Below the pieces are notes generated by a model, which saw only the letters and a program-made list of their open reading frames with translations, had not been told where the DNA came from and searched no databases. From contig CAYOXC010000002.1 of NCBI GenBank assembly GCA_964407865.1, positions 120,646 to 184,645 of the forward strand: a stretch of 64,000 nt of DNA, read 5' to 3'. This DNA comes from an uncultured Gammaproteobacteria bacterium (GTDB taxonomy: Bacteria > Patescibacteriota > Patescibacteriia > Magasanikbacterales > GWA2-37-8). Position numbers and translations under genes: made by a program. Shown piece after piece: positions 5,018 through 44,254 of this stretch (position 1 is its first letter; each line of letters starts with the position of its first letter).

Positions 5018-5851
5018 ATGAAATTTATTTTAGGAAAAAAAATTGGCATGACACAGGTATTTTCGCAAACAGGCGAGATTGTGCCTGTTACCCGAGTGAT
5101 GGCCGGTCCGTGTCAAATTGTACAGATTAAGACTCCTGAAAAACAGAATGTTCAGGCTGTTGAGATTGGTTTTGATGAAGTAAAAGATTTTCGAGTCAAC
5201 AAGCCTAAAAGTGGCCATTTAAAAGATTTAAAGCCAATGCGTTATTTGCGTTCCTTTGAAACTGAAAAGATTGATGGTTTGAATCGAGGTGACATTATTA
5301 CAGTAGAAGTTTTTTCACCCGGCGATAAAGTGACTGTATCTGGAAACTCAAAAGGTAGAGGGTTTGCCGGTGTGGTTAAACGTCATCATTTTAAGGGTTC
5401 GCCAGCTACACATGGCCACAAACATGATTTGCGCGCTCCGGGTGCAATTGGTGCTGGAGGTGTACAGCGAGTATTTAAGGGTACGCGTATGGCCGGAAGA
5501 ATGGGCGGTGAACCGGTAACTGTACAAAACCTTGAAATAGTTGAAGTCCGTCCTGAAATAAATGAACTTTTGATTAAAGGTGCGGTTCCAGGAGCGCGAA
5601 ATACTTTGATTAAGATTTATTGTCCTGGTGATTTAGAAATAAAGAAAATTGAAGAGCCAGCCACAGAAGATATGACTTCTGTTGAGAAAGTTGATCAGGA
5701 GAATGAAGAATCAAAAAATGACGAGCAAGTCGTTGGAGAAACAACAACAGAGGTTAAAAATGACACTGTTGAAACACCGTCTTTGGAAAAAACAGTTGAG
5801 GGCGATAAGCAGGAAATGAAGGTAGAAGAACCAACTGTTACAAGTCAATAA
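5018..5851 (+). CDS. rplC: 50S ribosomal protein L3 with a ~65-aa acidic C-terminal extension
   Basis: The L3 core is residues 1-210. The tail is rich in E, T and K. Confidence 0.93.
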   Translation: MKFILGKKIGMTQVFSQTGEIVPVTRVMAGPCQIVQIKTPEKQNVQAVEIGFDEVKDFRVNKPKSGHLKDLKPMRYLRSFETEKIDGLNRGDIITVEVFSPGDKVTVSGNSKGRGFAGVVKRHHFKGSPATHGHKHDLRAPGAIGAGGVQRVFKGTRMAGRMGGEPVTVQNLEIVEVRPEINELLIKGAVPGARNTLIKIYCPGDLEIKKIEEPATEDMTSVEKVDQENEESKNDEQVVGETTTEVKNDTVETPSLEKTVEGDKQEMKVEEPTVTSQ

Positions 5852-5865
5852 TTTGGGAAATATTT

Positions 5866-6507
5866 ATGAAGACAAAGGTATACAATCTAGAAGGAAAAGA
5901 AGTGTCAGAAATGAATTTGAATGACAAGGTGTTTGGGGTAAAAGTTAAACCTGAATTTGTTCATGAAGTTTTTCTATTACAGATGCGCAACCAGCGCCAG
6001 CCTTGGGCCGATAGTAAAAATCGTGGCGAGGTAAGCGGTGGTGGTAAAAAGCCGTGGCGTCAGAAGGGCACTGGTCGTGCCAGGCACGGTTCAATTCGTT
6101 CACCTCTTTGGGTAGGTGGCGGTGTAACATTCGGTCCTTTAGCTGAACGCAATTACAAAGCTAAAATTAATAAGCGCGCACGAAAACTGGCTGCTAAAAT
6201 GTGTTTGTCTGACAAGGTTGAAGGAAATGCTTTGTACGTAGTAGAGGACTTTGCTTTTGTTGAACCAAAAACAAAGTTGTTTGTACAATTTTTAAGCAAA
6301 TTACCAGTAAAACAGAAAAGATTTTTAGTATTGACTGGCGCAGAAGACAACTCAAAGGTTTACCAGATGACACGCAATTTAAAAACGATTGAAACAATCC
6401 GAGCGGTTGATGCTAGTGTTATTTCCTTAGTTCAAAATGCAGCAATTATTGTCAGTAAAGATGCGATTAATGAATTGGAAAGAATTTTAACAAAAAGCGA
6501 AAAATAA
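5866..6507 (+). CDS. rplD: 50S ribosomal protein L4
   Basis: GGGKKPWRQKGTGRAR motif. Confidence 0.93.
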   Translation: MKTKVYNLEGKEVSEMNLNDKVFGVKVKPEFVHEVFLLQMRNQRQPWADSKNRGEVSGGGKKPWRQKGTGRARHGSIRSPLWVGGGVTFGPLAERNYKAKINKRARKLAAKMCLSDKVEGNALYVVEDFAFVEPKTKLFVQFLSKLPVKQKRFLVLTGAEDNSKVYQMTRNLKTIETIRAVDASVISLVQNAAIIVSKDAINELERILTKSEK

Positions 6508-6513
6508 TCTGAT

Positions 6514-6912
6514 ATGGGTTTAATTAATAGAAAAAAGAAAATTAAAGAGGAAGAAAAAAAAGTTGACACTCCTATTGAAACTACAGCTGTTAAGTCGAAT
6601 CAAGCTGAGTCGTCAAAAAAGGGTTCGATTATTTCTAACCGATTAATTTTAAAACCGTTGATTACCGAAAAAGCGGCTATTGCTCAAAGTTTAAATAAAT
6701 ATTCTTTTATAGTTATAAAAGATGCGAGCAAAGTTCAAATTAAAAAAGCAATTAAAGAAATTTACGGAATAGAACCGAAGACGGTTAATTTAATCAATAT
6801 GGAAGGAAAAAAGAGACGTTTTGGCCGTTCAACCGGTCGACGCTCAGATTACAAGAAGGCCGTGGTGACTCTGCCGTCAGGCAAGAGTATAACCATTCAT
6901 GAAGGCGTCTAA
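6514..6912 (+). CDS. rplW: 50S ribosomal protein L23 with a ~35-aa Lys-rich N-terminal extension
   Basis: L23 core ILKPLITEKA...YKKAVVTL. Confidence 0.88.
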   Translation: MGLINRKKKIKEEEKKVDTPIETTAVKSNQAESSKKGSIISNRLILKPLITEKAAIAQSLNKYSFIVIKDASKVQIKKAIKEIYGIEPKTVNLINMEGKKRRFGRSTGRRSDYKKAVVTLPSGKSITIHEGV

Positions 6913-6937
6913 AATTTTTTGAGAAGATTAGCTTTAT

Positions 6938-7780
6938 ATGGCAATAAAAGTCTACAAACCAACATCAAGTGGCCGCCGACACTCATCAGTCGACTCTTTT
7001 TCTGATATTACAAAAAAGAAACCTGAAAAATCTTTGACTGTTGCGCTTCAGCCGCATTCTGGACGAAACAACCAGGGCATTATTACGGTACGCCATAAAT
7101 CAGGTGGGGCGAAGAAATTATATCGCCTAGTGGATTTTAAACAAATTAATTATGGAGTTGAAGCTGAAGTATTGGCTATTGAGTATGATCCAAATCGTGG
7201 TCCGCGAATAGCTTTGATCCAGTATCCTGATGGCAAAAAATCCTACATACTTGCACCAGCCCAGTTAGGCGTTGGTGATAAGGTAATTTCTTCGGATAAA
7301 AGCATGGAGCCAAAAGTTGGATATCGGATGCCTTTAGAATTTATGCCAATTGGTACTTTTGTATTCAATATTGAACTGACCCCAGGAAAGGGTGGACAGA
7401 TGGTTAGAGGCGCTGGTTTATCCGCGCAGCTGGTTGGTATTGAAAAAGATTTTGCTCAAATCAAATTACCTTCTGGTGAGATTAGAATGGTACGCAAGCA
7501 ATGTGCTGCTTCAATCGGTTCTCTTAGTAATGCAGATAGGCGCTTAATTCGCTGGGGAAAAGCAGGTCGCTCGCGCCATCGTGGCATCAGACCGACAGTA
7601 AAGGGAAAAAACATGAACCCAGTTGATCATCCGCATGGCGGTGGCGAGGGCCATAGTCCGATTGGTCAGAAAAGAGGTCCTCAGACAGTTTATGGTAAAA
7701 CTGCAATGGGCGTTAGAACTCGTCAAAAAGGAAAATGGAGCGATAAATTTATTATTAAATCACGACGCCGCCAAAAATAA
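6938..7780 (+). CDS. rplB: 50S ribosomal protein L2
   Basis: GRNNQG, MNPVDHPHGGGEG. Confidence 0.96.
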   Translation: MAIKVYKPTSSGRRHSSVDSFSDITKKKPEKSLTVALQPHSGRNNQGIITVRHKSGGAKKLYRLVDFKQINYGVEAEVLAIEYDPNRGPRIALIQYPDGKKSYILAPAQLGVGDKVISSDKSMEPKVGYRMPLEFMPIGTFVFNIELTPGKGGQMVRGAGLSAQLVGIEKDFAQIKLPSGEIRMVRKQCAASIGSLSNADRRLIRWGKAGRSRHRGIRPTVKGKNMNPVDHPHGGGEGHSPIGQKRGPQTVYGKTAMGVRTRQKGKWSDKFIIKSRRRQK

Positions 7781-7798
7781 TTTAAATAGCTATTGAAT

Positions 7799-8113
7799 AT
7801 GTCACGAAGTTTAAAAAAAGGGCCATATATTGACGAAAAACTCCTGAAGAAAGTATTGGCTCAGAAAAACAGCGGTGCAAAGACTGCGATCAAAACATGG
7901 TCGCGTGCTTGTGTGATTTCGCCGGAAATGGTTGGGGTTACTTTTCAGGTGCACAATGGAAAAGATTTTATAAATGTAGGCGTAGATGAAAATATGGTCG
8001 GCCATCGCTTGGGTGAATTTGCACCAACTCGTAAGTTTATCAGACATGGTGGAAAGATGGCAAAGGATCAGGCAGGTAAAGCAGGCTCGGCAGGAGCTGG
8101 ATCGTCAAAATAA
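7799..8113 (+). CDS. rpsS: 30S ribosomal protein S19
   Basis: [11 protein letters not shown]...HNGK. The start is taken at the second Met. Confidence 0.93.
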
Positions 8114-8127
8114 ATTAAATAATTAAT

Positions 8128-8532
8128 ATGTCGCAGGAAATCAAAGCAACATTAAGGTTTTTGAAAATGGGCCCCCGCAAGGTGAGGTTGATTGCTGATT
8201 TGATGCGTGGACACAAAGTTGTTATTTTGCTCGATCGTCTTGCCATAAATAAGCGGAGAGCAGCCAAGCCAATGCTTAAATTGCTGAAATCAGCTGTGGC
8301 CAATGCAAAGAATAATTTTAAGCTTGATTTGAATACCCTGCGAGTCAAAACTATTACTGTAGACGGAGGTCCGATGGTAAAAAGATGGATGCCGAAAGCT
8401 CATGGCCGGGCAACCCCGATAAGGCAGCGCACTTCGCATATTAAACTTGTTTTGATTTCTGAAGAGCCGAAAATAAAAAAGAAGAAAGCTGAAAAAGATA
8501 AGAAAATTACGAAAAAGGAAAAAAATAAATAA
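8128..8532 (+). CDS. rplV: 50S ribosomal protein L22 with a Lys-rich C-terminal tail
   Basis: PRKVRLIADLMRG motif. Confidence 0.9.
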   Translation: MSQEIKATLRFLKMGPRKVRLIADLMRGHKVVILLDRLAINKRRAAKPMLKLLKSAVANAKNNFKLDLNTLRVKTITVDGGPMVKRWMPKAHGRATPIRQRTSHIKLVLISEEPKIKKKKAEKDKKITKKEKNK

Positions 8533-8573
8533 TTTATATATTAACGATTTAGATATTAGATATTTAGATTTGT

Positions 8574-9257
8574 ATGGGTCATAAAGTACATCCGAAAATT
8601 CATCGCACGCCGTATATTTATGCTTGGGATTCCCGTTGGTTTGCTAAAAAAAGCGATTTACCAACGCATCTTTCCCAGGAAGTTAAAATACGCGAGTATT
8701 TAGGAAAGAAATTGAAGGATTCTGGTATTGATGCGATTTCAATTGAGCGCAGTCCAAAGGATATGACCATTACTATTCTTGCCGCGAAACCGGGTGTAAT
8801 CATTGGTCGTTCCGGACAAGGACTTGATATTATTCGAAAACATATTGAAAAGAAATTTTTGCAGTGTAAGACAAAAGTAAAGCTAAATATTCAGCCAGTG
8901 AAACAGCCGGCTCTATCGGCTTCTATTGTCGCGGCTAATTGCGCTGTAGAAATTGAAAGGCGTATGCCTTTTAGGAGAGTAATGAAGCAAGCAATTGAGA
9001 AGGTAATGTCTGCTGGCGCAAAGGGTGTAAAAATTTCTATGGCCGGCCGATTAAATGGAGTGGAAATTTCACGACGCGAAAAGTTGGCAGCTGGTAAAAT
9101 GTCGCTTATCACATTGCGCAGTAATGTTGATTATGCTTTAGCTGAAGCCCAGACCATATATGGAAAAATTGGCATTAAGGTATGGATTTATCACGGCGAG
9201 GCCTTTGGTCGCCATGATCGTTTTGCAAAAATTGATAAAGAAGAAAAGAAAAAATAA
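8574..9257 (+). CDS. rpsC: 30S ribosomal protein S3
   Basis: [24 protein letters not shown]. Contains KH and S3-C domains. Confidence 0.95.
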
Positions 9258-9265
9258 ATATTAGT

Positions 9266-9676
9266 ATGTTAACGCCTAAGAAAGTATTACATAGAAAATG
9301 GCATAAAGGACGCCGCCGTAATAAGGGGGTGGCTACTCGCATGAACGCTATTGCTTTTGGCGAGTTTGGGTTAAAAAGTTTGACTCATGGTTGGGTTACT
9401 AGTCGCCAGATTGAAGCTACCAGACGCGTATTAACGCGCTATGTTAGGCGCGGAGGTAAGATATGGATACGGATATTTCCTGATAAACCAATTACAAAAA
9501 AAGGAAACGAACAGCCAATGGGTGGAGGCAAGGGCGCACCGGAATATTTTGTAGCAGTAGTAAAGCCGGGTACAATACTTTTTGAAATGGCCGGTATTCC
9601 AAAAGAGAAAGCAGCCGAAGCAATTAAATTGGCTGGTTATAAATTAGGATTAAGAGTTAAATTTGTAGAAAAATAA
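9266..9676 (+). CDS. rplP: 50S ribosomal protein L16
   Basis: [21 protein letters not shown]. Confidence 0.95.
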
Positions 9677-9678
9677 TA

Positions 9679-9888
9679 TTGGATATGGATTTTGATGAAT
9701 TAAAGACAAAAAGCGAAAAAGAATTGAAGGAATTGTTAAGTGAACAGGTAGCTTTGCTACGAGAGTTTAGGTTTAAAATTGCAAATCAGCAATTAAAAAC
9801 TGTTGGAAAGATTAAAGATGCTCGCAAAACAATAGCCAGAATAAAGATGCTTATAAATGCAAAAATAAGTGAGGCTAAGAAAAAATAA
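9679..9888 (+). CDS. rpmC: 50S ribosomal protein L29
   Basis: Position and sequence (ELKELLSEQVALLREFRFK). Confidence 0.85.
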   Translation: MDMDFDELKTKSEKELKELLSEQVALLREFRFKIANQQLKTVGKIKDARKTIARIKMLINAKISEAKKK

Positions 9889-9894
9889 TTTGCT

Positions 9895-10170
9895 TTGAAC
9901 AAAGATATGGAAAATAAAAATGAAAAAAAAGTAATTAAGCGCGAATTTACCGGAGAGGTTGTTTCTAATGCAATGGCAAAAACGATCGTGGTTAAGGTTG
10001 TTCGAAGCACCCTTCATCCAAAATATAAAAAGTATTACCGAACCAGTCGAAAATATTATGTTCATGATGAAAAACAAGCAGCAAAAGTTGGAAATTCTGT
10101 TAAATTTGTTGAATGCCGACCATTATCAAAGACAAAAAGATGGCGGCTGACTGAGGTTTTGTCAAAATAA
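9895..10170 (+). CDS. rpsQ: 30S ribosomal protein S17
   Basis: GEVVSNAMAKTIVVKV...YYVHDE. Confidence 0.92.
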   Translation: MNKDMENKNEKKVIKREFTGEVVSNAMAKTIVVKVVRSTLHPKYKKYYRTSRKYYVHDEKQAAKVGNSVKFVECRPLSKTKRWRLTEVLSK

Positions 10171-10179
10171 GATTTACAT

Positions 10180-10551
10180 ATGATTCAACATCGCTCAATG
10201 TTAGCAGTTGCAGACAATAGTGGCGCAAAGAAACTTCAGTGTTTGCGCGTGCTTGGTGGCTATCGAAAACGATATGCCCGTTTGGGCGATATTGTCACCT
10301 GTTCCGTGAAGATTGCTGCTCCGCGCGGTTTAGTAAAAAAAGGTGAAGTAGTACATGCGGTTATTGTTCGACAGAGAAAAGAAACACGACGAAAAGACGG
10401 AACGTATGTTCGTTTTGATGAAAATGCTGCCGTAATTGTTGACAGAAAGACAAAAGAACCAAAAGGGTCTCGTATTTTCGGGCCAGTAGCTAGAGAATTA
10501 CGTGTTAATGGTTTCCAGAAGATTGTTTCTTTGGCGCCCGAAGTGCTTTAA
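10180..10551 (+). CDS. rplN: 50S ribosomal protein L14
   Basis: [18 protein letters not shown]. Confidence 0.96.
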
Positions 10552-10572
10552 TAGACCAGTTGATATAAATGT

Positions 10573-10881
10573 ATGAGAATAAAAACAAACGACAAAGTAA
10601 AAATTGTTGCCGGTAAAGATCGGGGTAAGGAAGGCAAAGTTATTCAAGTTTTTTCCAAAGAAGGAAAGATTGTTGTTGAAGGTTTAAATTTGATGAAAAA
10701 GCACTTGCGCCCTCGCCAGCGAGGAGAAAAAGGACAAATTATTGAACTGGCTGCTCCTCTGGCAGTATCTAATGTTATGTTAATTTGTGAGAAATGCGGC
10801 AAACCAACAAGAATCGGTTATAAAACAGAAGGAGAGAGCAAGAAAAGAACATGTAAAAAATGTAAGGAATCAATTGTATAA
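10573..10881 (+). CDS. rplX: 50S ribosomal protein L24 with a C-terminal CxxC...CxxC zinc ribbon
   Basis: KOW motif KVKIVAGKDRGKEGKV. The tail CEKCGKP...CKKCKE supplies the zinc-ribbon cysteines. Confidence 0.9.
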   Translation: MRIKTNDKVKIVAGKDRGKEGKVIQVFSKEGKIVVEGLNLMKKHLRPRQRGEKGQIIELAAPLAVSNVMLICEKCGKPTRIGYKTEGESKKRTCKKCKESIV

Positions 10882-10886
10882 TCAAT

Positions 10887-11429
10887 ATGACATCGAATTT
10901 GTATAAACAATATAAAAAAGAGATAGTACCGGCATTAGTGAAGGAATTTAAATATAAAAGTGTTTCACAAGCTCCAAAAATTAAAAAGATTGTGCTTAAT
11001 GTTGGAGTTGGCAGGTTTATAAAGGAGCCGAGTTATATCGAAAATGTCGAGAAGAATTTGGCGAAAATTAGCGGGCAGAAACCGGTTCGGACAAAAGCAA
11101 AAAAAGCTATTTCCAATTTTAAGATTCGTGAAGGCATGGATATTGGAGTTATGGTTACGCTTAGAGGCCCAAAGATGTATGATTTTTTGGAAAAATTACT
11201 GACTATAACTTTGCCAAGAACAAGGGATTTTCGAGGTATTTCGGGAAAATCATTTGATGGTCACGGTAATTACAATCTTGGTTTTAAAGAAAATCTAGCC
11301 TTTCCAGAAATAAAAGGAAGTGATGCTGAAAAAAATCACGGTTTGCAGATTGTTGTTTCTACTACTGCGAAAAGTATTGAAGAAGGACGGGCCTTATTGG
11401 AAAAAATTGGTTTTCCTTTCGTTAAATAA
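10887..11429 (+). CDS. rplE: 50S ribosomal protein L5
   Basis: Typical L5 sequence. 180 aa. Confidence 0.93.
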   Translation: MTSNLYKQYKKEIVPALVKEFKYKSVSQAPKIKKIVLNVGVGRFIKEPSYIENVEKNLAKISGQKPVRTKAKKAISNFKIREGMDIGVMVTLRGPKMYDFLEKLLTITLPRTRDFRGISGKSFDGHGNYNLGFKENLAFPEIKGSDAEKNHGLQIVVSTTAKSIEEGRALLEKIGFPFVK

Positions 11430-11432
11430 TTA

Positions 11433-11624
11433 TTGTTTATGGCTACTGAATCGCAAATTGCTAAATCAAATCGTAAACCAAAATTTTCAACAAGAATTGT
11501 TCGTCGATGTTGGAAATGCGGTAGACAACACGGATATTTCGGAAGGTTTGGCTTATGCCGGATTTGTTTTAGAGAATTAGCAAACGATGGAAAGATTCCT
11601 GGTGTTCGTAAATCAAGTTGGTAA
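11433..11624 (+). CDS. rpsZ: 30S ribosomal protein S14, zinc-binding type Z
   Basis: 61-63 aa with CWKCGR...CRICFRE. Confidence 0.92.
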   Translation: MFMATESQIAKSNRKPKFSTRIVRRCWKCGRQHGYFGRFGLCRICFRELANDGKIPGVRKSSW

Positions 11625-11659
11625 AAATTTGTAATCAATATATTTTTGAATGAAAAATT

Positions 11660-12049
11660 ATGATGACTGACCCAATCGCTGACATGTTAACTAGAATTCG
11701 CAATGCCTCAATGGTTCGTAAGAAAGAGGTAGTTGTTCCGTTTTCTAAAATTAAGCATGCTATTGCCGAAACGATGGTGCGACAAGGCTATCTTGTTAAG
11801 GTTGAAATCACTGGTGATGTAAAGAAAGATCTTGTTATCGCACTAAAGTATGATGGGCGTGAGCCGGGAATTCAATCGCTTAAGCGCATTTCAAAACCCG
11901 GTCAGCGAAGATATGTTAAAAGTAATGAATTAGGAAAGGTATTGAACGGGTTAGGCTCGTCTATTTTATCAACTCCAAAGGGAATAATGAGTAATGTTGA
12001 AGCAAAAAAGGCTAAAGTTGGAGGAGAATTGCTTTGTGAAATATATTAA
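11660..12049 (+). CDS. rpsH: 30S ribosomal protein S8
   Basis: DPIADMLTRIRNA. Confidence 0.95.
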   Translation: MMTDPIADMLTRIRNASMVRKKEVVVPFSKIKHAIAETMVRQGYLVKVEITGDVKKDLVIALKYDGREPGIQSLKRISKPGQRRYVKSNELGKVLNGLGSSILSTPKGIMSNVEAKKAKVGGELLCEIY

Positions 12050-12067
12050 GAATTATTATTGAATAGT

Positions 12068-12616
12068 ATGTCAAGAGTTGGTAAAAAAATTCATGAATTA
12101 CCGCCAGGAGTGACCGCTCAAGTGTCTGGCCAAACTCTGCTTGTAAGAGGCCCGAAGGGGGAACTTAGTTTAAAGATCCATCCGCGTGTTATCATTTCAG
12201 TGGAGGATAATAAATTAAGCGTTAAGGTATCGCGTGAAAATGATAAAAATGAGCGTGCTCTTTGGGGAACATTTTCTAGCTTAGCTGAGGGCATGATTCA
12301 AGGTGTTTCTCAAGGTTTTGTTAAAGAACTCGAAATTAATGGAGTTGGTTATAAAGCAAACATGCAGGGAGACAAGCTTGTGTTGGCTGTTGGCTATTCG
12401 CATCCAGTTGAATTTAATTCTCCACCAGGCATAAAAATTTCTGTTGAAAAAAATATTATTAAAATAGAAGGATTTGACAAGCAGTTGGTTGGTGAAACAG
12501 CGGCCCAGATTCGCGCTGTTAAAAAACCGGAGCCTTATCAGGGAAAGGGTATAAAATATATTGATGAAATAATCAGGCGTAAAGTCGGTAAGACTGCCGC
12601 CAAAAGCGCATCTTAA
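12068..12616 (+). CDS. rplF: 50S ribosomal protein L6
   Basis: MSRVGKK start. Two L6 repeats. Confidence 0.92.
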   Translation: MSRVGKKIHELPPGVTAQVSGQTLLVRGPKGELSLKIHPRVIISVEDNKLSVKVSRENDKNERALWGTFSSLAEGMIQGVSQGFVKELEINGVGYKANMQGDKLVLAVGYSHPVEFNSPPGIKISVEKNIIKIEGFDKQLVGETAAQIRAVKKPEPYQGKGIKYIDEIIRRKVGKTAAKSAS

Positions 12617-31953: not shown

Positions 31954-32030
31954 GGCCACTTGGCTCAGTTGGTTAGAGCGCTTCGTTCACATCGAAGAGG
32001 CCACTGGTTCGAGTCCAGTAGTGGCCACCA
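31954..32030 (+). tRNA. tRNA-Val (anticodon CAC), CCA-encoded
   Basis: Acceptor ggccact/agtggcc. Anticodon loop uuCACau. T-arm GGTTCGAGTCC. Confidence 0.85.
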
Positions 32031-32049
32031 GAAATTTGAGTTTAGTTTT

Positions 32050-32556
32050 ATGCCTCAAGATTTATCAAAAGAAGACGTAAATTTAGGTGAAGTGATTTAC
32101 AACTGGACGATTAAGGAATACGAAAAATATGAGCGCGGTAGCCGCTGGTATTTAGTTATGGGGATTTTTGCAATTTTGCTGATTGGTTTTGCTGTTATTA
32201 GTGCCAATTATTTATTTGCTTTAATTATTGTTCTGTTTGCCATAATTTTAGTTTTACAGGAAATGAATGAACCGGTAGAATTGGATTTTGCCATTACCGA
32301 AACCGGAGTGGTTATTGGCAATAAATTTTTTCCATTTTTTGAGATTGAAAAATATTGGCTAATTTACAATCCGCCGGAGATTAAAACTTTGTATTTTGAG
32401 CCAAAGACTATTTTAAAACATCGCATTTCTATTCCGCTGGATGATGTTGACCCGATAGAATTGCGTAGTTATTTGAATCAATATTTGGTGGAGGATATTG
32501 AGCGCGAAGAAGAACCAATAAGCGATCGGCTGGGAAGAATATTAAAAATTCAGTAG
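32050..32556 (+). CDS. Hypothetical membrane protein (2 TM helices)
   Basis: The track ORF 31960..32556 runs through the tRNA. The first ATG after the tRNA is at 32050 (MPQDLSKEDV). Confidence 0.5.
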   Translation: MPQDLSKEDVNLGEVIYNWTIKEYEKYERGSRWYLVMGIFAILLIGFAVISANYLFALIIVLFAIILVLQEMNEPVELDFAITETGVVIGNKFFPFFEIEKYWLIYNPPEIKTLYFEPKTILKHRISIPLDDVDPIELRSYLNQYLVEDIEREEEPISDRLGRILKIQ

Positions 32557-35471: not shown

Positions 35472-35581
35472 TTACATCTTGACTTTTCGATGTTTTTGTG
35501 ATATCCTCCCGGTTGTCTGTTTTGGAAGTTAAACTTCTAAAACAGGGGGTCCATTTACCAACCAAGGAAGGAAAAAATGAG

Positions 35582-35983
35582 ATGAAGAAACAAGCAGTTG
35601 CGATTGCAAGTCCGGAAAGAGACAGGATTCGCGTGTTGGTCAGAAGTGGCAATGAACCGCATCGGTCGTTTTACCTCACGGTCATGCACCTCGGGCTCAA
35701 CGGCAAGAGCGTCAGGCTTTTTGGCCGTCCGGGTCAGGATATGACCGACCGGACTTTCGAGGCCGAGGAAGTGGTTTTCAGGAGGGAAGAAGACTTGGAG
35801 CACTTCGTGCGTTTTGCGGCAGATTCCCTGCTCTCGCGCCGAAAGCGCTTCGTCTGGGATCCTTTCGGTGAAGAGGATGACTCTGTGATCGACGACACCG
35901 CCGGTCCGCTTCGTCAGAAGATCTGGAAGTGTTTCACTTCGCATCCGTCGATCAAGATTGACGGCGAGATTTTCAAGCGCTAA
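35582..35983 (+). CDS. GC-rich orphan protein (133 aa), hypothetical
   Basis: ATG at 35582 with an AGGAAGGA Shine-Dalgarno sequence. GC is about 55%. TTGACT lies at 35479. A terminator lies at 36013-36044. No family recognised. A long antisense ORF here (35555..35944) is taken as a GC artefact. Confidence 0.5.
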   Translation: MKKQAVAIASPERDRIRVLVRSGNEPHRSFYLTVMHLGLNGKSVRLFGRPGQDMTDRTFEAEEVVFRREEDLEHFVRFAADSLLSRRKRFVWDPFGEEDDSVIDDTAGPLRQKIWKCFTSHPSIKIDGEIFKR

Positions 35984-37415: not shown

Positions 37416-37429
37416 ATCAAAAAGCGTTT

Positions 37430-37447
37430 ACCCCGCCATATGGCGGG
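37430..37447 (-). terminator. Hairpin ccccgccat atggcgggg, likely the terminator of the upstream minus-strand operon
   Basis: Perfect 8-bp stem. On the minus strand a T-run follows. Confidence 0.45.
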
Positions 37448-37554
37448 GCCGCAGTTGTTGCAACTAAATACTATGGTATTGTTTTTCATAATCAGAAGTG
37501 TTTGTCTAGCCTTTTTGGCGGAGTTGTAATTATTATTTACAAATAAAGAAATTT

Positions 37555-38943
37555 TTAGGGTCTGGTTACTTCTATTAACGCAGCTGGATTAGGACATGTG
37601 CTTAAAATACAAATAGATCCTTGACTTACTGTCTTGCCGTAAGATCCTTGAATAACCTGTGCCTTACCACCAGAGCCCCAACCAACAAACAAGGCAGCAT
37701 GAGTGCCTCTGAGACTAGAATTACCGTTATAGACAATAATATAGTCACCAGGTTGCAGTGCGTTTGCCCAGGCATCTGGCCAACTACTACCTAATTTTGC
37801 TTTGTAATAATCGTAAACCATTTTTTTTGCCATAGCATTATCACTAGCGCAAGAGGATGCAGGTGTTTGGGATGAACATTTTACATTTTGAAGATATTTT
37901 CTGTCAGCTTGGGGGACGCTGTTAACAACTCGTCCTTTTGTCCAACAACCCTTATTTTCAGAAAGACAATCTTTTGAACCAATACCGGCTAGTGTATAGA
38001 TAGTGCCAGCCGTTCTACCACAAGCTCCAAAGTTTACACCGCACTTAACAGCCGCATCTGCGATTTTAATAATTTTTAGTTGTAAAGTATCTTCACCTGT
38101 CACCAGAGACTCGGCCTTGTCATAAAAAGATAAGCTTCTGGGATCTTTCTCTGGTTGTCCAGCAGTTGCATTACCTGACAGTTGTAGGGGACATTCAGTA
38201 TATTGAGGTTGAAAACTACCTGACACAGGTTCGCCGATTCCTTCACTGGTGTTTGCTAAAGTTGTTTGAAGTTCTATATGCAATGGAGATTCTGGAATGA
38301 ATTGAATTTTAAGCGAACGGAAAGTGGTTAAATTTGGATTGATAGTATAAAGCACAACATATGAGCCCCAGGCAATTAGAAGGCCGATTACAGCCTGAGT
38401 AATTCTTTTGTAACCTTGTTGTTTTGTTGGACCGCCGGCTGAAGTTATAATTACGGCTCCTTGAATAATAATAACTACTACGGCTACTATGCTGATTGTA
38501 GCCACAGCAAAATTATAAACCGCTTTTATGTATTCACCAAACCATGGAATGTAAATATTACCCTCTTCATCAACTTCAGTTGGCGGTGCTGAAAAATGAA
38601 GTGATGGAATTGTTACGCCAAGTACAACATCTTTAAATACAAAATCTTCTTCAATCTTTGTCATTGTTTTGGTGCCACAATCTTTGTCTTCGACTATGTT
38701 GCACCCAACATTTCTGCCAAAAGTGCTAAGTTCATCTTGCTTTGCCACACATTGTTCTGAAACAATTAGTTCAGCAAAAATTTCTTTTGTTGTGATAACT
38801 TCCGGTCCAGCGCCGCCTGCATATGTTTTAGTAATTGAACATACACAGCAAGATTTGTATTCAGCTGCCTCAGCAAAATTTACAAAACAAAAAAAATTCA
38901 GCGTAATGACTAATGATAAAATTATGGCTGAAATTTTTTTCAT
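37555..38943 (-). CDS. Secreted/membrane protein: signal peptide, Cys-rich domain, pilin-like double-TM hairpin, C-terminal NlpC/P60- or CHAP-like peptidase domain
   Basis: The N-terminus is hydrophobic. Two TM helices (AVYNFAVATISIVAVVVIII... and AVIGLLIAWGSYVVLY) are separated by a short basic loop. The C-terminus has PGDYIIV...THAALFVGW, with cysteines upstream. Confidence 0.5.
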   Translation of the reverse strand: MKKISAIILSLVITLNFFCFVNFAEAAEYKSCCVCSITKTYAGGAGPEVITTKEIFAELIVSEQCVAKQDELSTFGRNVGCNIVEDKDCGTKTMTKIEEDFVFKDVVLGVTIPSLHFSAPPTEVDEEGNIYIPWFGEYIKAVYNFAVATISIVAVVVIIIQGAVIITSAGGPTKQQGYKRITQAVIGLLIAWGSYVVLYTINPNLTTFRSLKIQFIPESPLHIELQTTLANTSEGIGEPVSGSFQPQYTECPLQLSGNATAGQPEKDPRSLSFYDKAESLVTGEDTLQLKIIKIADAAVKCGVNFGACGRTAGTIYTLAGIGSKDCLSENKGCWTKGRVVNSVPQADRKYLQNVKCSSQTPASSCASDNAMAKKMVYDYYKAKLGSSWPDAWANALQPGDYIIVYNGNSSLRGTHAALFVGWGSGGKAQVIQGSYGKTVSQGSICILSTCPNPAALIEVTRP

Positions 38944-38947
38944 AGCC

Positions 38948-39613
38948 TTAGTACTCTTTTATCAATTCAGAAAGCAAATCATTGACGTTAATCTCTTCCA
39001 GATAGTTTACCCGCATGTTATTAACAAAAATTATTGGTGCCTTTTTTAGTCCGATTGATTTTGCCAGTGAAACAGCCGAATCAACACGCGTTTTTGCTTC
39101 CGTAGAATTTAAACACGACTGCCAGGCATCTTTTTGCAAACTGATTTTTTCGGCAATACTAGACAAGGTTTCATTATCAGTTTTTTTACCGCTAATTTTT
39201 ACAAGTTCGTTTGCGTAGTCAGTAAATTTATTTTGTTTTTTAGCGCAAAAAGCGGCAATGTGAGGTTTTATGTCATCCTCAGCAAACAATCCTGTTGCCG
39301 GGAAATCCTTGAAGACCATTCTAATTTTTGTTGGATTGTTCTCAATAAAATCATCTAGTGTTTGAAAAAGGCGGCGACTGTTAGAGTCGTTAAAGTCAAT
39401 AAAGGCTGTTATAGTCATTGGAGCGCCTTGATTGCCAATAATTGGATCCATCGGATCAATTGGAATTTGCGTTGCTGAATTTTCAATTAGCGGCCGCTCA
39501 GATCGTTTGATAGTAATTTTTTCCGCGACAGATAATTGATAAACCAAAAATAACAAACAAACAATAATTGCTAATATCAATATAATAAAAAATTGGCGAT
39601 TTATGTTTTTCAT
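38948..39613 (-). CDS. Membrane-anchored thioredoxin/DsbA-like protein lacking the CxxC active site
   Basis: N-terminal TM helix. DsbA-like ITAFIDFNDSNS sits where F-D-x-x-C-P-x-C is expected, and no Cys pair is present. Confidence 0.5.
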   Translation of the reverse strand: MKNINRQFFIILILAIIVCLLFLVYQLSVAEKITIKRSERPLIENSATQIPIDPMDPIIGNQGAPMTITAFIDFNDSNSRRLFQTLDDFIENNPTKIRMVFKDFPATGLFAEDDIKPHIAAFCAKKQNKFTDYANELVKISGKKTDNETLSSIAEKISLQKDAWQSCLNSTEAKTRVDSAVSLAKSIGLKKAPIIFVNNMRVNYLEEINVNDLLSELIKEY

Positions 39614-40842
39614 ATTGATAAGTTTATCTCAAAAACACCAGATTGCGTCGTGTCGCTAAATAGCAATCTGTTGTTTGTTTCATCATACGATATATTTTTC
39701 ATTGAAAAATCTCCGCCAGTATTAATAGTTGTTTTGAGTCCGGTTTTTAGGTCAATTTTATAGAGATCATCAGTAGTGCCAGCGGCAATTTCTGGTTTAA
39801 GAGCTGCGCCTTGTGGCAAGTTGCGCGGTACGGCGCAATAAAGCGTTGAATCGCCGGCAAATGTGCATTTATCCGGCCAAGTGTTTAATTCTAGGTTGCG
39901 GCGGTTTGAGCCGATTTCATTACCATATGAGTTAGTCACCCAGATTTCCGGTTTAAGGTCACTACGCTGGGAATAGACGCTATACATTAGCTGATTTCCT
40001 GTTGGCGACCATTTGGGAGTAAAACCAAGCCCTTCCACAACCAATGATTTAAAATTTTCATGATTAAGACCGACAAGCAAAACTTCTTTGCGATAGAGCC
40101 CCAGCGGTTTTCCGGTAAAGGAAAAGGCGACAGTTTGGCGGCTGGGTGACCAATCAATCAGTACTTTGTCTTGGTTTTCACCCATTGGCTCGATTAGTTG
40201 AGTTCCAGTTCCATCATCACTGACGGTGAGCAACCAGCGGTTTTCAGGCGAGAGGCCAATTGATTTGGCGGCAATTTCAGTGCTGTCTGGTGAAAAAGAA
40301 AATTCTTCCCAGTGTTTTGGTAGGGTTACTTGTTTTTGAGTTTCAAAATTATAAATAATTTTTGATTGATCCGGATATTCGAGAACTGCCTTATCGGCTG
40401 TTTTCGCCCAAGTTACATTTGAAACATTATAAAAAACAGAATCACTCATGGCTTTGGTCGTTCCGTCGGGCATAACTTGATAAAATTTGCCATCACTTTG
40501 ATTGTAATACCTAAGAGCGCCAGTAGAATTAACTGAAGAATACACCGTCGGTTCCGCAGTAACCTGCCTAACAGCTTCAGGGCGATAATAGCTTGGCTCA
40601 ACACCGGGGATGTATCCGGCCTGCGGTAGGGTTGGTACACCGGGAACGCCTGGTGCGGTCGTGGCCACCCGCTCTCCAGCTGGTGGCAGAGCGCCGGGTA
40701 GGGTAGGTGTAGCCGTGGGTGGTGTTGGTACTTCTGCTACTGGCACTGCTTTTCTAAAAAAATAATATAAAGCCAGGGCTAAAAGAGCTGTGACTATAAA
40801 AAGTCCGATAATTAACAAAATTCTTTTAAGTCTATCTGACAT
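39610..40842 (-). CDS. Membrane-anchored beta-propeller protein (TolB/PD40-like repeats) with a Pro-rich linker
   Basis: N-terminal TM helix and a PTPPTATPTLPGALPP linker. Repeats include SPDSTEIA, WSPSRQTVAF and WSPTGNQLMY. Confidence 0.55.
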   Translation of the reverse strand: MSDRLKRILLIIGLFIVTALLALALYYFFRKAVPVAEVPTPPTATPTLPGALPPAGERVATTAPGVPGVPTLPQAGYIPGVEPSYYRPEAVRQVTAEPTVYSSVNSTGALRYYNQSDGKFYQVMPDGTTKAMSDSVFYNVSNVTWAKTADKAVLEYPDQSKIIYNFETQKQVTLPKHWEEFSFSPDSTEIAAKSIGLSPENRWLLTVSDDGTGTQLIEPMGENQDKVLIDWSPSRQTVAFSFTGKPLGLYRKEVLLVGLNHENFKSLVVEGLGFTPKWSPTGNQLMYSVYSQRSDLKPEIWVTNSYGNEIGSNRRNLELNTWPDKCTFAGDSTLYCAVPRNLPQGAALKPEIAAGTTDDLYKIDLKTGLKTTINTGGDFSMKNISYDETNNRLLFSDTTQSGVFEINLSI

Positions 40843-40846
40843 AGAA

Positions 40847-41665
40847 TTATGCAGTTATATTTACGCTAACTTGGTTGATTTTTTTATTTATATTTTGCAA
40901 CTCTCTTTTCATTGGTTGAATTTGTCTGTCTCTTTCTCGAGATAATGCTTGTTTTTGGATTCGGAGTTTTTGTTTGAGTTCCATGGTTTTCAATGAAGGA
41001 CGGCCTAAATTAAAACCGCAAAGCCAAAGGATAAAACAGCCAATAATTAAAAGAATCATGAGCAAGGGAATTACTATTGTATACCAAAGAGTTCCAGCAA
41101 TACCGCCTAATACTTTAATAATTTTAATGAGATTTACTGTCCTATCTTTTATTTTCGATGCTTTTAATGCTCTTTCAGCCGGTTTAAGTTTGCTTTGGGT
41201 TGTGATACTAGCGTTTCGTATTTGCCTATTTAGAGTCAGGCTGCGTGTGCGCAGTAGTCTGATTTGCTTTTCGGCAGCTTCTGCCCGGCGTGCTGTTTCG
41301 GCTTGATAAGCCATTTCTTCTTGCGTACCTCCAGCTGTTTTTTGTTCTGGCGCAGACCCTTCTCCAGCCTCTTCTTCAGAGTACCCTTCTTCGCCCTCTT
41401 CAGATATTTCTTCTTCTGTCGGAGGGGTTTCAGTTGGCCGGCCGTATTCCTGTTCGATCAGGACCGCTTCTTTTTCTGCCAGTGTCGGAATTTTAGTCCG
41501 CGCGCCCATTTCTTCTTGTTCCATTTGTCTTCTTTTAGCTGCCCGTGCTTTTGTTAGTTCAGTCGCGTTTTTCTGTTCTAATAATTGCGCAGGCGTCATT
41601 TCTTCGCCTTGATATAATTCTTCAGGATTAACTCCCTGGTTTTTTTGTTCTCCTGTTGCCGGCAT
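40847..41665 (-). CDS. Glu-rich coiled-coil protein with a single C-proximal TM helix, hypothetical
   Basis: Acidic N-terminus. TM helix LGGIAGTLWYTIVIPLLMILLIIGCFILWL. Confidence 0.45.
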   Translation of the reverse strand: MPATGEQKNQGVNPEELYQGEEMTPAQLLEQKNATELTKARAAKRRQMEQEEMGARTKIPTLAEKEAVLIEQEYGRPTETPPTEEEISEEGEEGYSEEEAGEGSAPEQKTAGGTQEEMAYQAETARRAEAAEKQIRLLRTRSLTLNRQIRNASITTQSKLKPAERALKASKIKDRTVNLIKIIKVLGGIAGTLWYTIVIPLLMILLIIGCFILWLCGFNLGRPSLKTMELKQKLRIQKQALSRERDRQIQPMKRELQNINKKINQVSVNITA

Positions 41666-41668
41666 AAA

Positions 41669-44182
41669 TTATTTTAGGCTCAATTTTTGAGCATTTGTTT
41701 CCAAGGAATATGTTTTTTTCAGCATGCCACCTAGAATAATATTAGCAATATTATTTTCAACTTCAGAGCGAATTTTTTGTCTGATGTCACGTGCGTTACT
41801 GTTTTTTTCTCCTAGGCCGGCAAGTAGTTTTTCCAAATCTTTTCTATTAACTGTTATTTTTGTTGAATATTTTTTCAGTCGATTATTCAATGATTCTATT
41901 TCAAGAATGGCAATTTTTGCTAAATCTTCTGCTGACAATTCTCGAAAACAGCATATTCGATCAAGGCGGTTAATAAGTTCAGGAGAGAAGCGGTCTTTCA
42001 GTTTTTCTTTTAGACGTTCCTGGTCTTCTTTTATAGTTTCTGAAACATGGTTGAACCCAAAAGCGCCTTTTTTCAGCTCGTCAGCTCCAAAAGACGTGGT
42101 TAATATTATTATAGCATGTTTTAGGGAAATTTTCTTGCCAGTTGCATCTGTAATTTCACCTTCTTCAAGGATTTGCAAAAGCAGTTTAAGAATATCTGGG
42201 TGCGCTTTGTCTATTTCATCAAAAAGTACTACTGAATATGGTTGAAGCTTCAATTTGTCAGTAAATTGGTTTGCTTCTTTGTAACCAACATAACCCGCTG
42301 GAGAGCCCAATAGTTTTGAGGCGCCGAATGATTCGCCAAATTCCGACATGTCCAATTTAATCAAGGCATCTTGCCCGGGGTAGAGAACTCGAGATAGAGA
42401 TTTGGCTAACTCGGTTTTTCCTACGCCTGAGGGCCCGACATACAAAAGCGATGCAGTCGGCCTCATCGGATCAGAGAGGCCTAATTCGGCTTGTCTGATA
42501 AGCGCAACAGTGTCGTTTATAGGATCTTCTTGTCCAATAACTAATTTTTTAAGTCGAGCGGTAATTTTGTTGAATCTATTTTCATTGCCGGCAATAATTT
42601 CTGATGGTTCTCTGCCGATAATTTTTGCCACTTGATTTACAATGTCTTCGGTTTGAACAGTGCCAAATATCTTTTCTTTTACGTTTTCAAGATCGTGTTC
42701 AACTTTTTGTATTTTATCAAAAATTGTTTTTTCTTCTTCTTTCATTTTTAAAGCTTCGCCAAAACGATCTCCTAAAGCTGCTTCTTCTTTTTTTGAACCG
42801 ATTTCTCGAAGCTGTTGACGCAGATAAGAAAGCTCATCTTCTTCCGGACTGGTTTTTGAGCTTAGGCGTTTTGCAGCTGCTGTTTCGTCGAGTAGGTCAA
42901 TTGCCTTGTCAGGTAAAAATTTTCCAGAAATATAACGAGCAGACATTTCTACTGCCGCTTTGATCGCCTGGTCTTCAATTTTAACATGGTGGTATGTTTC
43001 ATAATTCTTTTTGATGCCGCGCAGAATTTTAACAGCTTCGTTGACTGTTGGCTCTCGAACAAATATTGGCATTAGACGCCTCTCCAGAGCGGCATCACTT
43101 TCTATAAATTTTTTAAACTCAGCCGGAGTTGTTGAACCAATGCAGTGAATTGATCCGCGGGCAAGCGCTGGTTTTAATAAATTTGCAGCATCCATTGAAC
43201 CCTGTGACGATCCAGCGCCGACAATATTATGAATTTCGTCAATGAAAATTATAATATTTGGATCTCTCGATGCGTCTTCAATCAGTTCTTTAAGCCGAGC
43301 TTCGAATTCACCGCGGTAAATTGTTCCGGCGACTAGCATGCCGAGATCAACAGAATATATTTTTTTATTACGAAGCATGTCTGGTATTTGGCCCTCAATA
43401 ATTTTTTTAGCCAAACCTTCAACAATAGCTGTTTTGCCAACGCCTGGATCGCCCAGTAGGACAGGGTTGTTTTTTGTTCGCCGAGATAAAATTTGTATCA
43501 AGCGCTCAATTTCATTGTCCCGACCAATAACCGGATCAATATTTTTTTGATTTTTTCTTTCAGTCAGATCGACGGCAAAATACTCAAGAGCGGATTCTTG
43601 TTTTTTACCCCTAGTTTTTCTTTGACTGCCAATTGGTACGCCTGCAGAGCCAAGCATATTGTCTTGTATTTGTTCTGCGGCTTCAGCCACTTCGTTTATA
43701 TTAGGAAATTGGGCAGCATTGGAAAAAATTGAATCTATTTCTTTTTTTATTTCATCAGGATTAAATTTTGAAATTTTGAAAAATTCATTTAATTTTGGAT
43801 CTTCGATTTCAAGCAGAGCACCGAGCAAATGTTCGCTGCCAAGGTAGTTATGTCCATTTTTTTGAGCGATAATCAAGGCTTTTTCCAAAACCAGTTTAGA
43901 TTGTGGTGAGAGTGGTGGAAGTTGAAGTTCGGTTGAAATTTTTTGATTATCAGTTTTTTCCATTTCAGAAGACATTGGTAGAGTCAGAAGCATTTGTTCA
44001 ATAATTTTGATATCTGGTTTAGAGCGGTTGATTAGCTCCGATGCGACAGAACCTTTTTCGTTCATGGCAGCATAAAAAAGATGCAATGGTTCAATTGAAC
44101 GATTTTTAAGTTCGTTTGCCGATTGCATGGCGCGGGCCAAAATTTCTTTAAGATGTGTGGAAAAACGGTCAAGAATATTCAT
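41669..44182 (-). CDS. Clp/Hsp100 AAA+ chaperone ATPase (ClpB/ClpC family)
   Basis: Clp_N repeats. Two Walker A sites, GDPGVGKT and GPSGVGKT. 837 aa. Confidence 0.85.
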
Positions 44183-44254
44183 ATTTCTTGTGCTTTATTA
44201 TCTGTCATTATATAATGTAAAGGTTGTTTAGTCAAAATAGTTTTTTATCTAAAT

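Follow-up and report, generated by a model that had tools for sequence, protein, structure and literature searches.

The class III heat-shock operon of Bacillus subtilis has the gene order ctsR-mcsA-mcsB-clpC-radA-disA. CtsR regulates radA and disA in this organism, and clpC is co-regulated (PMC10633939). The gene cluster that we describe here also has clpC and radA on one strand, with four genes for envelope proteins between them. It lies in a 64-kb window of a Patescibacteria genome, the window being the whole stretch of DNA analysed (64,000 nucleotides, positions 120,646 to 184,645 of contig CAYOXC010000002.1, assembly GCA_964407865.1). We call clpC g1 and the four envelope genes g2 to g5. 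The noteworthy part of the cluster is g5, which fuses a pilin-type carrier to a predicted wall hydrolase and is accompanied by two constant partners, a DsbA-like protein (g4) and a β-propeller protein (g3).

Patescibacteria account for much of bacterial diversity. They grow attached to other cells, and very little is known of the biology of their surfaces. VirB2-like pilins have been documented across the phylum, often far from virB4 and in variable arrays, and are essential for the epibiotic growth of Southlakia (PMC12102498, PMC12857230, PMC10633639). In the class ABY1, type IV secretion system (T4SS) loci have been reported to include comF, recG and radA (PMC12102498). The three papers on these pilins make no mention of ClpC, of thioredoxin-fold or propeller partners, or of enzyme-fused pilins. 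In F-like T4SSs, thioredoxin-fold factors come as TrbB, which has a CxxC motif, and as TraF, which has none and acts in pilus extension with no redox chemistry; redox-inactive TraF alone has not been observed in conjugative T4SSs (PMC11315126).

Our literature search found no description of the cassette or of this pilin–hydrolase fusion, in agreement with the preliminary description of this DNA, made by a model from the letters alone, which did not know the gene combination as a described system. VirB2-like pilins being abundant in Patescibacteria and essential in the one species that is tractable, the locus gives the family a concrete biochemical handle. Its DsbA-like and propeller partners had not previously been linked to pilins, and the propeller–DsbA–pilin trio offers a genomic marker for finding related modules. 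For ClpC, conspicuous as it is, caution is due: it is probably a neighbour inherited with the operon and not part of the machine.

Layout and conservation of the cluster

The cluster comprises six genes, listed here in their order on the minus strand.

41669–44182, minus strand: g1, ClpC-type Hsp100 AAA+ unfoldase, 837 aa
40847–41665, minus strand: g2, membrane protein, 272 aa
39610–40842, minus strand: g3, membrane-anchored β-propeller, 410 aa
38948–39613, minus strand: g4, membrane-anchored DsbA-like protein, 221 aa
37555–38943, minus strand: g5, pilin-like fusion, 462 aa
36072–37415, minus strand: radA/sms, the sixth and last co-directional gene, with a TIGR00416 match

The first five open reading frames (ORFs) were confirmed where the preliminary description had placed them, with spacings of 3, 4, −4 (an overlap) and 4 nt; a further 139 nt separates g5 from radA. 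They had been read as a five-gene operon. The tight, conserved and co-directional packing stands, in that the genes share a strand, are minimally spaced and keep their order across divergent genomes. The gene number does not: radA comes next on the same strand, after the cassette, and Firmicutes co-regulate clpC with radA, so the cluster is better read as six genes. Like the Firmicute operon, it has co-directional clpC and radA and a ClpC-type ATPase with an N-domain, a short M-domain and an h-G-F motif. Unlike that operon, it has no ctsR, mcsA or mcsB upstream, where a divergent phosphomannomutase (PMM) gene lies instead, no above-chance CtsR operator, and no disA downstream, where recG is convergent; nor does the Firmicute operon have four envelope genes between clpC and radA.

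A genome scan seeded with g5 relatives, in a narrow alignment, yielded 34 species-level loci (given L numbers below), onto which the window proteins were mapped; the counts that follow describe these g5-bearing loci and not all Patescibacteria. The recurrent order is htpX, divergent PMM, clpC, g2 slot, g3, g4, g5, radA and convergent recG. clpC lies directly upstream of the cassette in 27 of 28 assessable loci, and radA directly downstream of g5 in 29 of 31. The g3-g4-g5 trio is never broken, being contiguous in all 30 Patescibacteria loci. Gaps are mostly below 40 nt in the relatives, that between g5 and radA usually measuring 2–40 nt, and the gene order persists where ClpC is as little as 42% identical and, in a contig of Komeilibacteria, where g3 is 36% identical. 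The check for co-localisation in related genomes, which the preliminary description had proposed, therefore came out favourably, and we regard the cluster as real. The six-gene co-directional cluster is typical of Magasanikbacteria and related Patescibacteria.

Departures from this order fall outside the trio. The locus L014 (Candidatus Magasanikbacteria GW2011_GWA2_37_8, 5224–12400) retains the g2 slot, g3, g4, g5 with an SLT cargo, and radA, with neither clpC nor a clpC remnant in the stretch from the divergent PMM gene to the g2 slot, which starts about 100 nt after PMM. In L002 and L020 no radA follows g5 and the core is intact. Four Saccharibacteria-type contigs, which are close kin of one another and so count as one extra lineage, carry a small PF18895 pilin directly upstream of a g3-like PD40 propeller.

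Saccharibacteria-type pilin–propeller pairs: L035:1308–3221; L036:117–1928; L038:1330–3274; L039:646–1383

The pair of L035 adjoins yidC, yidD, dnaA and dnaN, and is thus near the replication origin. No clpC, radA or DsbA-like gene stands beside the pair in these contigs.

The pilin-like fusion protein g5

The combination of a pilin-like hairpin and an NlpC/P60-like hydrolase that had been proposed for g5 was borne out. The protein has 16 cysteines in total and is divided as follows; model confidence is given as the predicted local distance difference test (pLDDT) of an AlphaFold2 model.

38866–38943, minus strand: predicted signal peptide, aa 1–26 (...NFAEA/AEYK), with an AxA-type site and a hydrophobic N-terminus, read from sequence
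38674–38856, minus strand: Cys-rich α/β N-domain, aa 30–90, with a CCVC motif and 6 Cys, pLDDT 75–91
38296–38643, minus strand: VirB2/PF18895-type pilin-like region, with a conserved ectodomain motif, transmembrane helix 134–167, short basic loop, transmembrane helix 172–201 and a YTINPNL...LK motif
38221–38295, minus strand: disordered linker, aa 217–241, pLDDT <50, the junction where orthologue C-domains differ
37558–38220, minus strand: C-terminal divergent NlpC/P60/CHAP-like (papain-fold) domain, aa 242–462, with candidate nucleophile Cys308 and His415

With its signal peptide and two transmembrane helices joined by a short loop of about 10 residues on the predicted cytoplasmic side, g5 has the layout of VirB2/TrbC-type pilins, and its hairpin structurally resembles a conjugation pilin. 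Among 33 slot orthologues, 18 match PF18895 at E ≤ 0.001, the best being L034 (37.5 bits), which also matches PF04956, and L035 (29.9 bits). Through these orthologues the g5 hairpin probably belongs to the PF18895/TrbC-VirB2 family. The N-domain is hypervariable, with similarity to that of the window only in L007 and L009. A Foldseek search of g5 against the Protein Data Bank (PDB) gave no significant match. The predicted template modelling score of the AlphaFold2 model is 0.49, so the arrangement of the domains relative to one another is uncertain.

Residues 242–462 matched no Pfam or NCBIfam family, PF00877 and PF05257 included, and a profile search against PDB sequences returned nothing. 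The AlphaFold2 model of this domain is confident and, by fold comparison, has a papain-like α+β core. C308 starts helix 308–318 and is invariant (21/21), H415 starts strand 414–422 and is conserved in 20/20, and Q432 is conserved in 19 of 20. Since the domain holds nine cysteines, an odd number, one unpaired cysteine is expected. The family of the window's C-domain comprises 185 clusters among 1.84 billion representatives. Every one of the 123 members that reach 330 aa has the hairpin, the 25 members without it being short fragments, and the window-type C-domain is found only on a hairpin carrier.

Like the VirB2-like pilins described from Patescibacteria (PMC12102498, PMC10633639), g5 has a hairpin that, through its orthologues, is probably of the same family, comes from the same phylum, has occasional tandem paralogues, is often away from virB4, and lies near recG and radA, as those pilins are reported to do in class ABY1. 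The described pilins are small (that of L035 has 189 aa) and often form arrays in or near T4SS clusters. In contrast, g5 has a Cys-rich N-domain and an enzyme domain of 220–450 aa, has one copy, within a housekeeping operon, and invariably follows the DsbA-like and propeller genes. The VirB1-type and Gram-positive conjugation hydrolases (PrgK, TraG of pIP501, CwlT, Tn916-like Orf14/Orf17) have a single transmembrane anchor, unlike the two-helix VirB2-like hairpin of g5; they belong to conjugative elements, whereas g5 occupies a chromosomal housekeeping locus with an enzyme domain that varies at a fixed site.

Exchange of the enzyme domain

The g5 slot orthologues keep the hairpin (43–73% identity) and differ in their C-terminal domains, alignments losing similarity just past the hairpin. 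Their cargos are Peptidase_C39_2, Amidase_2 (as in L033), SLT (as in L014), M15_4/VanY (M15 in L010), SLT with an SGNH/GDSL esterase, a metallophosphoesterase and several domains without a family, nearly all being peptidoglycan-active families. The five closest genomes (g3 63–73% and ClpC 62–68% identical) have no similarity to the window C-domain, which is shared at 25–46% identity by eight more distant genomes (g3 54–60%). This discordance with genome relatedness shows that lineages have repeatedly swapped the enzyme cargo on a fixed carrier. The locus presents a pilin-type carrier with recognisable wall-hydrolase cargo, swapped at a fixed chromosomal site.

Polymorphic toxin and effector systems share with g5 a conserved carrier, a disordered junction, species-discordant cargo and tandem paralogues. 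They differ in that the cargo of g5 consists almost entirely of wall hydrolases and not of nucleases or deaminases, in that g5 has no immunity gene behind it, and in that its carrier is an integral membrane hairpin.

In L015 (9803–11707), one pilin-like carrier holds an SLT lytic transglycosylase together with an SGNH/GDSL esterase, the pair expected for cutting O-acetylated peptidoglycan. Tandem paralogues of the pilin-hairpin fusion occupy the g4–radA interval in four genomes (L002:11259–12518; L006:9604–10768; L013:4566–6194; L028:6961–9231) and resemble the pilin arrays described in other Patescibacteria. About 7 kb from its main cassette and on the opposite strand, L002 also carries a second DsbA-like gene directly before a second pilin-hairpin fusion, with no propeller (L002:18471–20692, minus strand).

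The partner proteins g4, g3 and g2

The fold of g4 is that of a DsbA-like protein (PF13462 Thioredoxin_4, 48.2 bits, cutoff 23.2; PF01323 DSBA, 28.9 bits, cutoff 25.6). The preliminary description had it as thioredoxin-like without CxxC. This is true in the window, where the active site reads F-I-D-F-N-D-S-N-S, with NDSNS where CxxC is expected, but it is a derived loss, as 23 of 30 orthologues keep a CxxC at the aligned position (among them CPAC, CKEC and CPHC). The window, L007, L009, L010, L011, L015 and L016 have lost it; in L018 the cysteines are displaced, with no CxxC at the aligned position. Because the catalytic CxxC is absent, the window protein is a degenerate DsbA family member from which redox activity is not expected. 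The CxxC-less orthologues in the six loci from L007 to L016 just named are well conserved, at 34–50% identity to window g4. Their conservation beside a Cys-rich g5 points to a non-redox role for g4 and to another oxidase elsewhere in the genome.

By description, g4 may be likened to TrbB and TraF, also thioredoxin-fold proteins beside a VirB2-type pilin with redox-active and redox-dead forms. It is unlike them in being DsbA-like (Thioredoxin_4), with an N-terminal membrane anchor and in a monoderm, and in that the dead form is the sole copy in the 64-kb window.

For g3, the AlphaFold2 model bore out the membrane anchor, Pro-rich stalk and β-propeller described earlier, with a transmembrane helix at aa 3–30, a disordered Pro-rich stalk at 31–84 and a seven-bladed propeller at 90–410. 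The mean pLDDT is 81, and exceeds 90 across most of the propeller. Its Foldseek neighbours, with identities near 11%, are generic propellers of the WD40, tricorn, DPP-IV and oligogalacturonate-lyase kinds. Profile searching of PDB sequences gave no match to g3, and some orthologues match PF07676 PD40. With 1058 relatives, the best 120 of which are all at least 56% identical, g3 is the most conserved member of the cassette. The TolB propeller is six-bladed. Like TolB of the Tol-Pal system, g3 is a PD40-type envelope propeller; unlike it, g3 has seven blades, no TolB N-domain, a transmembrane anchor and a Pro-rich stalk, and comes from a monoderm without Pal or TolA. Identity with TolB was rejected, the weak TIGR02800 match covering only aa 229–308 at 20.4 bits against a cutoff of 343.

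The third partner, g2, had been called a Glu-rich protein with a single transmembrane helix. It is Glu-rich (13% Glu), with an acidic, charged N-terminal part (aa 1–184), a hydrophobic stretch (185–223) and a basic tail. A single helix is the less likely reading, the hydrophobic stretch, at 39 aa, having room for a two-helix hairpin; basic residues on both of its flanks suggest that both tails are cytoplasmic. In 29 loci the g2 slot is filled by one ORF of 198–575 aa that shares this layout. An iterative hidden Markov model of g2 recovered 25 of 30 slot proteins with zero off-slot matches. The protein is nevertheless fast-evolving and almost unalignable across slots, with no conserved motif and only moderate conservation, confined to the membrane segment and its flanks. 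The family search of g2 gave no Pfam, NCBIfam or PADLOC match and no adaptor-like domain.

ClpC, RadA and transcription of the cluster

Pfam finds Clp_N, AAA, AAA_lid_9, AAA_2 and ClpB_D2-small domains in g1, that is, a double AAA+ protein with an N-domain. Staphylococcus aureus and B. subtilis ClpC, its best solved relatives, align with it in one stretch (aa 5–820), whereas the alignment of ClpB splits in two at the longer ClpB M-domain; the M-domain of g1 is therefore short, of ClpC length. Its GAFGFN motif (about aa 703–708) aligns with the ClpP-docking h-G-F loop region of S. aureus ClpC. By these features g1 appears to be a canonical full-length ClpC with a ClpP-docking-type loop. Its orthologues are 42–68% identical, a conservation similar to that of RecG and RadA. 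The radA product is a full-length member of TIGR00416 (548.9 bits against a cutoff of 403, aa 5–444), the RadA/Sms family with its Zn ribbon, RecA-like ATPase and Lon-like C-domain. As clpC-radA co-regulation is known from Firmicutes, the two genes are most likely an inherited housekeeping stress/repair pair, with ClpC a neighbour of the cassette and not a dedicated unfoldase.

Two elements flank the co-directional genes that run from clpC to g5.

44207–44235, minus strand: sigma-70-like promoter TTGACT-N17-TATAAT, a consensus match within the 72 nt that separate clpC from the divergent PMM gene
37419–37452, minus strand: terminator-like hairpin and U5, with an 8+3 bp stem (37452–37424), ATAT loop and UUUUU (37423–37419)

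The predicted promoter, which the preliminary description had also seen, lies upstream of clpC, matches the consensus at 11/12 positions and has the top score in an 8.5-kb scan, in a region whose 27 promoter-like matches in total are not above shuffles (20.6 ± 5). The terminator hairpin, previously put at 37430–37447, is real and larger than described. It ends 6 nt ahead of the radA ATG (37415), in an intergenic region with a folding z of −3.0; a simple terminator scan made no call at the hairpin. It is probably a partial terminator or attenuator. The layout suggests a single clpC-to-radA transcript, with the cassette driven from the clpC promoter.

A CtsR-operator-like match, GGTCAAGAATATTCATA, with 3 mismatches, overlaps the clpC start codon (window 44167–44183, plus strand) and is the sole one near the cluster. 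Window-wide, there are 8 matches to the CtsR operator at 3 mismatches, against 12.3 expected by chance.

Interpretation of the cassette

We favour, with moderate confidence, the reading that g2–g5 form an envelope cassette of four genes, set within an inherited clpC-radA operon, with g5 a hydrolase tethered on a pilin-like anchor. The four genes downstream of clpC encode envelope proteins, and the earlier label of a surface or cell-wall-remodelling module is a fair one. g5 would be exported by Sec and held in the membrane through its VirB2-like two-helix hairpin, the Cys-rich N-domain and the papain-fold hydrolase both facing outward. The predicted hydrolase would cut peptidoglycan peptide stems near the cell's own surface, in wall remodelling or to make room for surface structures, and disulfide bonds would stabilise it there. 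A Cys-rich exported g5 beside a DsbA-type g4 makes a logical enzyme–substrate pair. Ancestrally, the membrane-anchored, DsbA-type g4 would have oxidised the ectodomain cysteines of g5, and in the window's clade it is probably a redox-inactive folding or assembly helper. As a platform, g3 probably docks on the conserved hairpin and juxtamembrane part of g5, while g2 would be a rapidly diverging membrane adaptor with its acidic tail in the cytoplasm. The hairpin preceding radA in this genome would be leaky. The integral-membrane anchor and the short linker (about 25 aa) favour action near the cell's own membrane or wall. The cell's own wall is accordingly the target that we hold most probable, with moderate confidence; the wall of a host is a weaker candidate, and some other target is improbable.

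Several points weigh against this reading. The window g5 itself falls short of PF18895, at 15.1 bits where the cutoff is 26.6. It was through g5 that the loci were collected, and flanking htpX, PMM and recG are as syntenic as the cluster in a class where synteny is high, so adjacency alone is no proof of functional coupling. Cargo swapping, hypervariable N-domains and g2, and tandem paralogues look like an arms race or host interaction and not like a housekeeping autolysin, and the high conservation of the hairpin suggests a role beyond that of an anchor. The enzymatic activity, transcription, localisation and the g3–g5 and g4–g5 contacts are, in addition, predictions from sequence.

Of the alternatives, the one that survives best, although we think it improbable, makes g5 a VirB2-type pilin that a VirB4-type T4SS encoded elsewhere draws out of the membrane and builds into a conjugative-type pilus or mounts at its tip, its enzyme breaching the host wall. 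Cargo swapping would then track the wall chemistry of the bacterium on which the episymbiont lives. In VirB2/TraA-type pili both termini face outward, which makes terminal fusions sterically conceivable. The family assignment of the hairpin through orthologues and its conjugation-pilin-like structure are consistent with a pilus, as are the widespread, often virB4-distant and arrayed pilins of Patescibacteria, their essential role in Southlakia and the reported ABY1 T4SS loci near recG and radA (see above); a fixed carrier whose cargo is polymorphic, together with variable N-domains and tandem paralogues, suits a diversifying host interaction. However, VirB4, VirB6 and the coupling protein are absent from the 64-kb window and from ±10 kb in the 34 relatives. 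A globular cargo of 220–450 aa per subunit is also hard to fit into a tightly packed VirB2 filament, g5 is a single-copy gene of a housekeeping operon, and a pilus of this kind has yet to be seen. The Pam pili of a 2026 preprint on pili of the candidate phyla radiation (CPR) were considered and rejected as a match, being built of Ig-like donor-strand-exchange pilins with no propeller, thioredoxin, Clp or VirB2 content.

A larger scheme, which we put forward tentatively and consider still more doubtful, is a CPR-episymbiont delivery system: the VirB2-type pilin would carry interchangeable wall enzymes, the DsbA-derived g4 chaperone and the g3 platform would mature and load it, the surface filament on which it is displayed or into which it polymerises would open the host wall, the cargo would set host range, and ClpC would govern turnover via the g2 tail.

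That ClpC and ClpP act as a dedicated unfoldase coupled to the cassette, with, for example, the acidic g2 tail as a membrane adaptor or degron through which ClpC extracts or degrades cassette proteins, so that proteolysis sets hydrolase levels, we judge unlikely. clpC is directly upstream in the 27 of 28 loci given above, most with a clpC–g2 gap of 0–16 nt even though g2 is almost unalignable, and g2 probably has a long, disordered, acidic tail on the cytoplasmic side. Against such coupling, the ClpC is canonical and as conserved as RecG and RadA, radA comes after it as in Firmicutes, and housekeeping neighbours outside the operon are equally syntenic. Moreover, L014 has the cassette without clpC, the Saccharibacteria-type pilin–propeller pairs have no clpC nearby, g5 offers only its loop of some ten residues to the cytoplasm, and g2 lacks an adaptor-like domain. 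The earlier claim of a module coupled to a cytoplasmic unfoldase is the least well supported point of the preliminary description. An anti-phage defence system was also rejected: PADLOC gave nothing for g2, g3 and g5 and a sub-significant RT_III-A match for g4 (14 bits), and ClpC drew only generic AAA+ matches.

Very unlikely, in our estimate, is a role as an accessory of DNA uptake or recombination, in which the cassette would aid a DNA import or transfer apparatus across the wall, co-regulated with radA, recG and dprA. The presence of radA in the operon, of recG, dprA, recO and topA in the window, and of a PilB-type ATPase beyond recG in about 12 relatives would suit such a role, as would the suggestion made for the ABY1 T4SS loci (PMC12102498) and the aid that peptidoglycan hydrolases are reported to give to competence-pilus extrusion in streptococci (PMC12424861). 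Yet this is adjacency only, in a region that is a generally syntenic housekeeping block. radA is not beside the cassette in L002 and L020, the Saccharibacteria-type pair is next to dnaA and yidC instead, and none of g2–g5 is a DNA-binding or DNA-processing protein.

The ATPase gene in question, of PilB/GspE type (T2SSE), lies with FtsH beyond recG in L005 (15561–20398) and at the same position in about 11 other loci. These are more distant relatives only, and in the window's clade the position has neither gene. T4SS ATPases had been a candidate for these proteins, which fall into two Walker-A families in about 12 relatives, and were rejected, the proteins being PilB/GspE and FtsH and not VirB4 or a T4SS coupling protein.

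Least probable of all is that g2–g5 are unrelated envelope genes with no common function, frozen in compact order in slowly rearranging small genomes, for although htpX, PMM and recG also keep their positions and g2–g5 evolve at very different rates, g3-g4-g5 stay contiguous (30/30) and overlapping or abutting even where g3 is 36% identical, in Komeilibacteria, L002 has a second DsbA-like/pilin-fusion pair, duplicated as one unit, another class has the pilin–propeller pair in other genomic surroundings, and a Cys-rich exported protein beside a DsbA-type oxidoreductase is a logical enzyme–substrate pair.

Genomic setting and minor observations

The genome is small and low in GC, and the 64-kb window belongs to its ordinary core chromosome. 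Within the window are a ribosomal-protein operon, adk, map, recO, aspS/asnS, parAB, relA, topA, dprA, pth, der, an LCP protein gene, recG, radA, clpC, the phosphomannomutase gene, htpX, lemA, rseP, pheST, dnaE, fpg, tsaD and five tRNAs. No mobile-element genes, T4SS machinery or extra copies of the hairpin, g3 or g4 were found in the window, and a mobile-element origin of the cluster was rejected, the whole window being housekeeping chromosome. The nearest relatives are metagenome-assembled genomes titled Candidatus Magasanikbacteria or Patescibacteria, and several third-party-annotated records titled 'uncultured Gammaproteobacteria' have the same gene order.

Between radA and recG, on the opposite strand, lies a 161-aa ORF without a family match (35498–35983, plus strand), which is weakly conserved (28–35% identity) in L007, L011 and L016. 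A 198-aa ORF without a family match (31960–32556, plus strand) starts within tRNA-Val (31954–32030), so its listed start is probably spurious. At 60801–61895 (minus strand), the window encodes a 364-aa protein with a phosphoribosyltransferase domain, which may be the 'comF' reported near the ABY1 T4SS, recG and radA loci.

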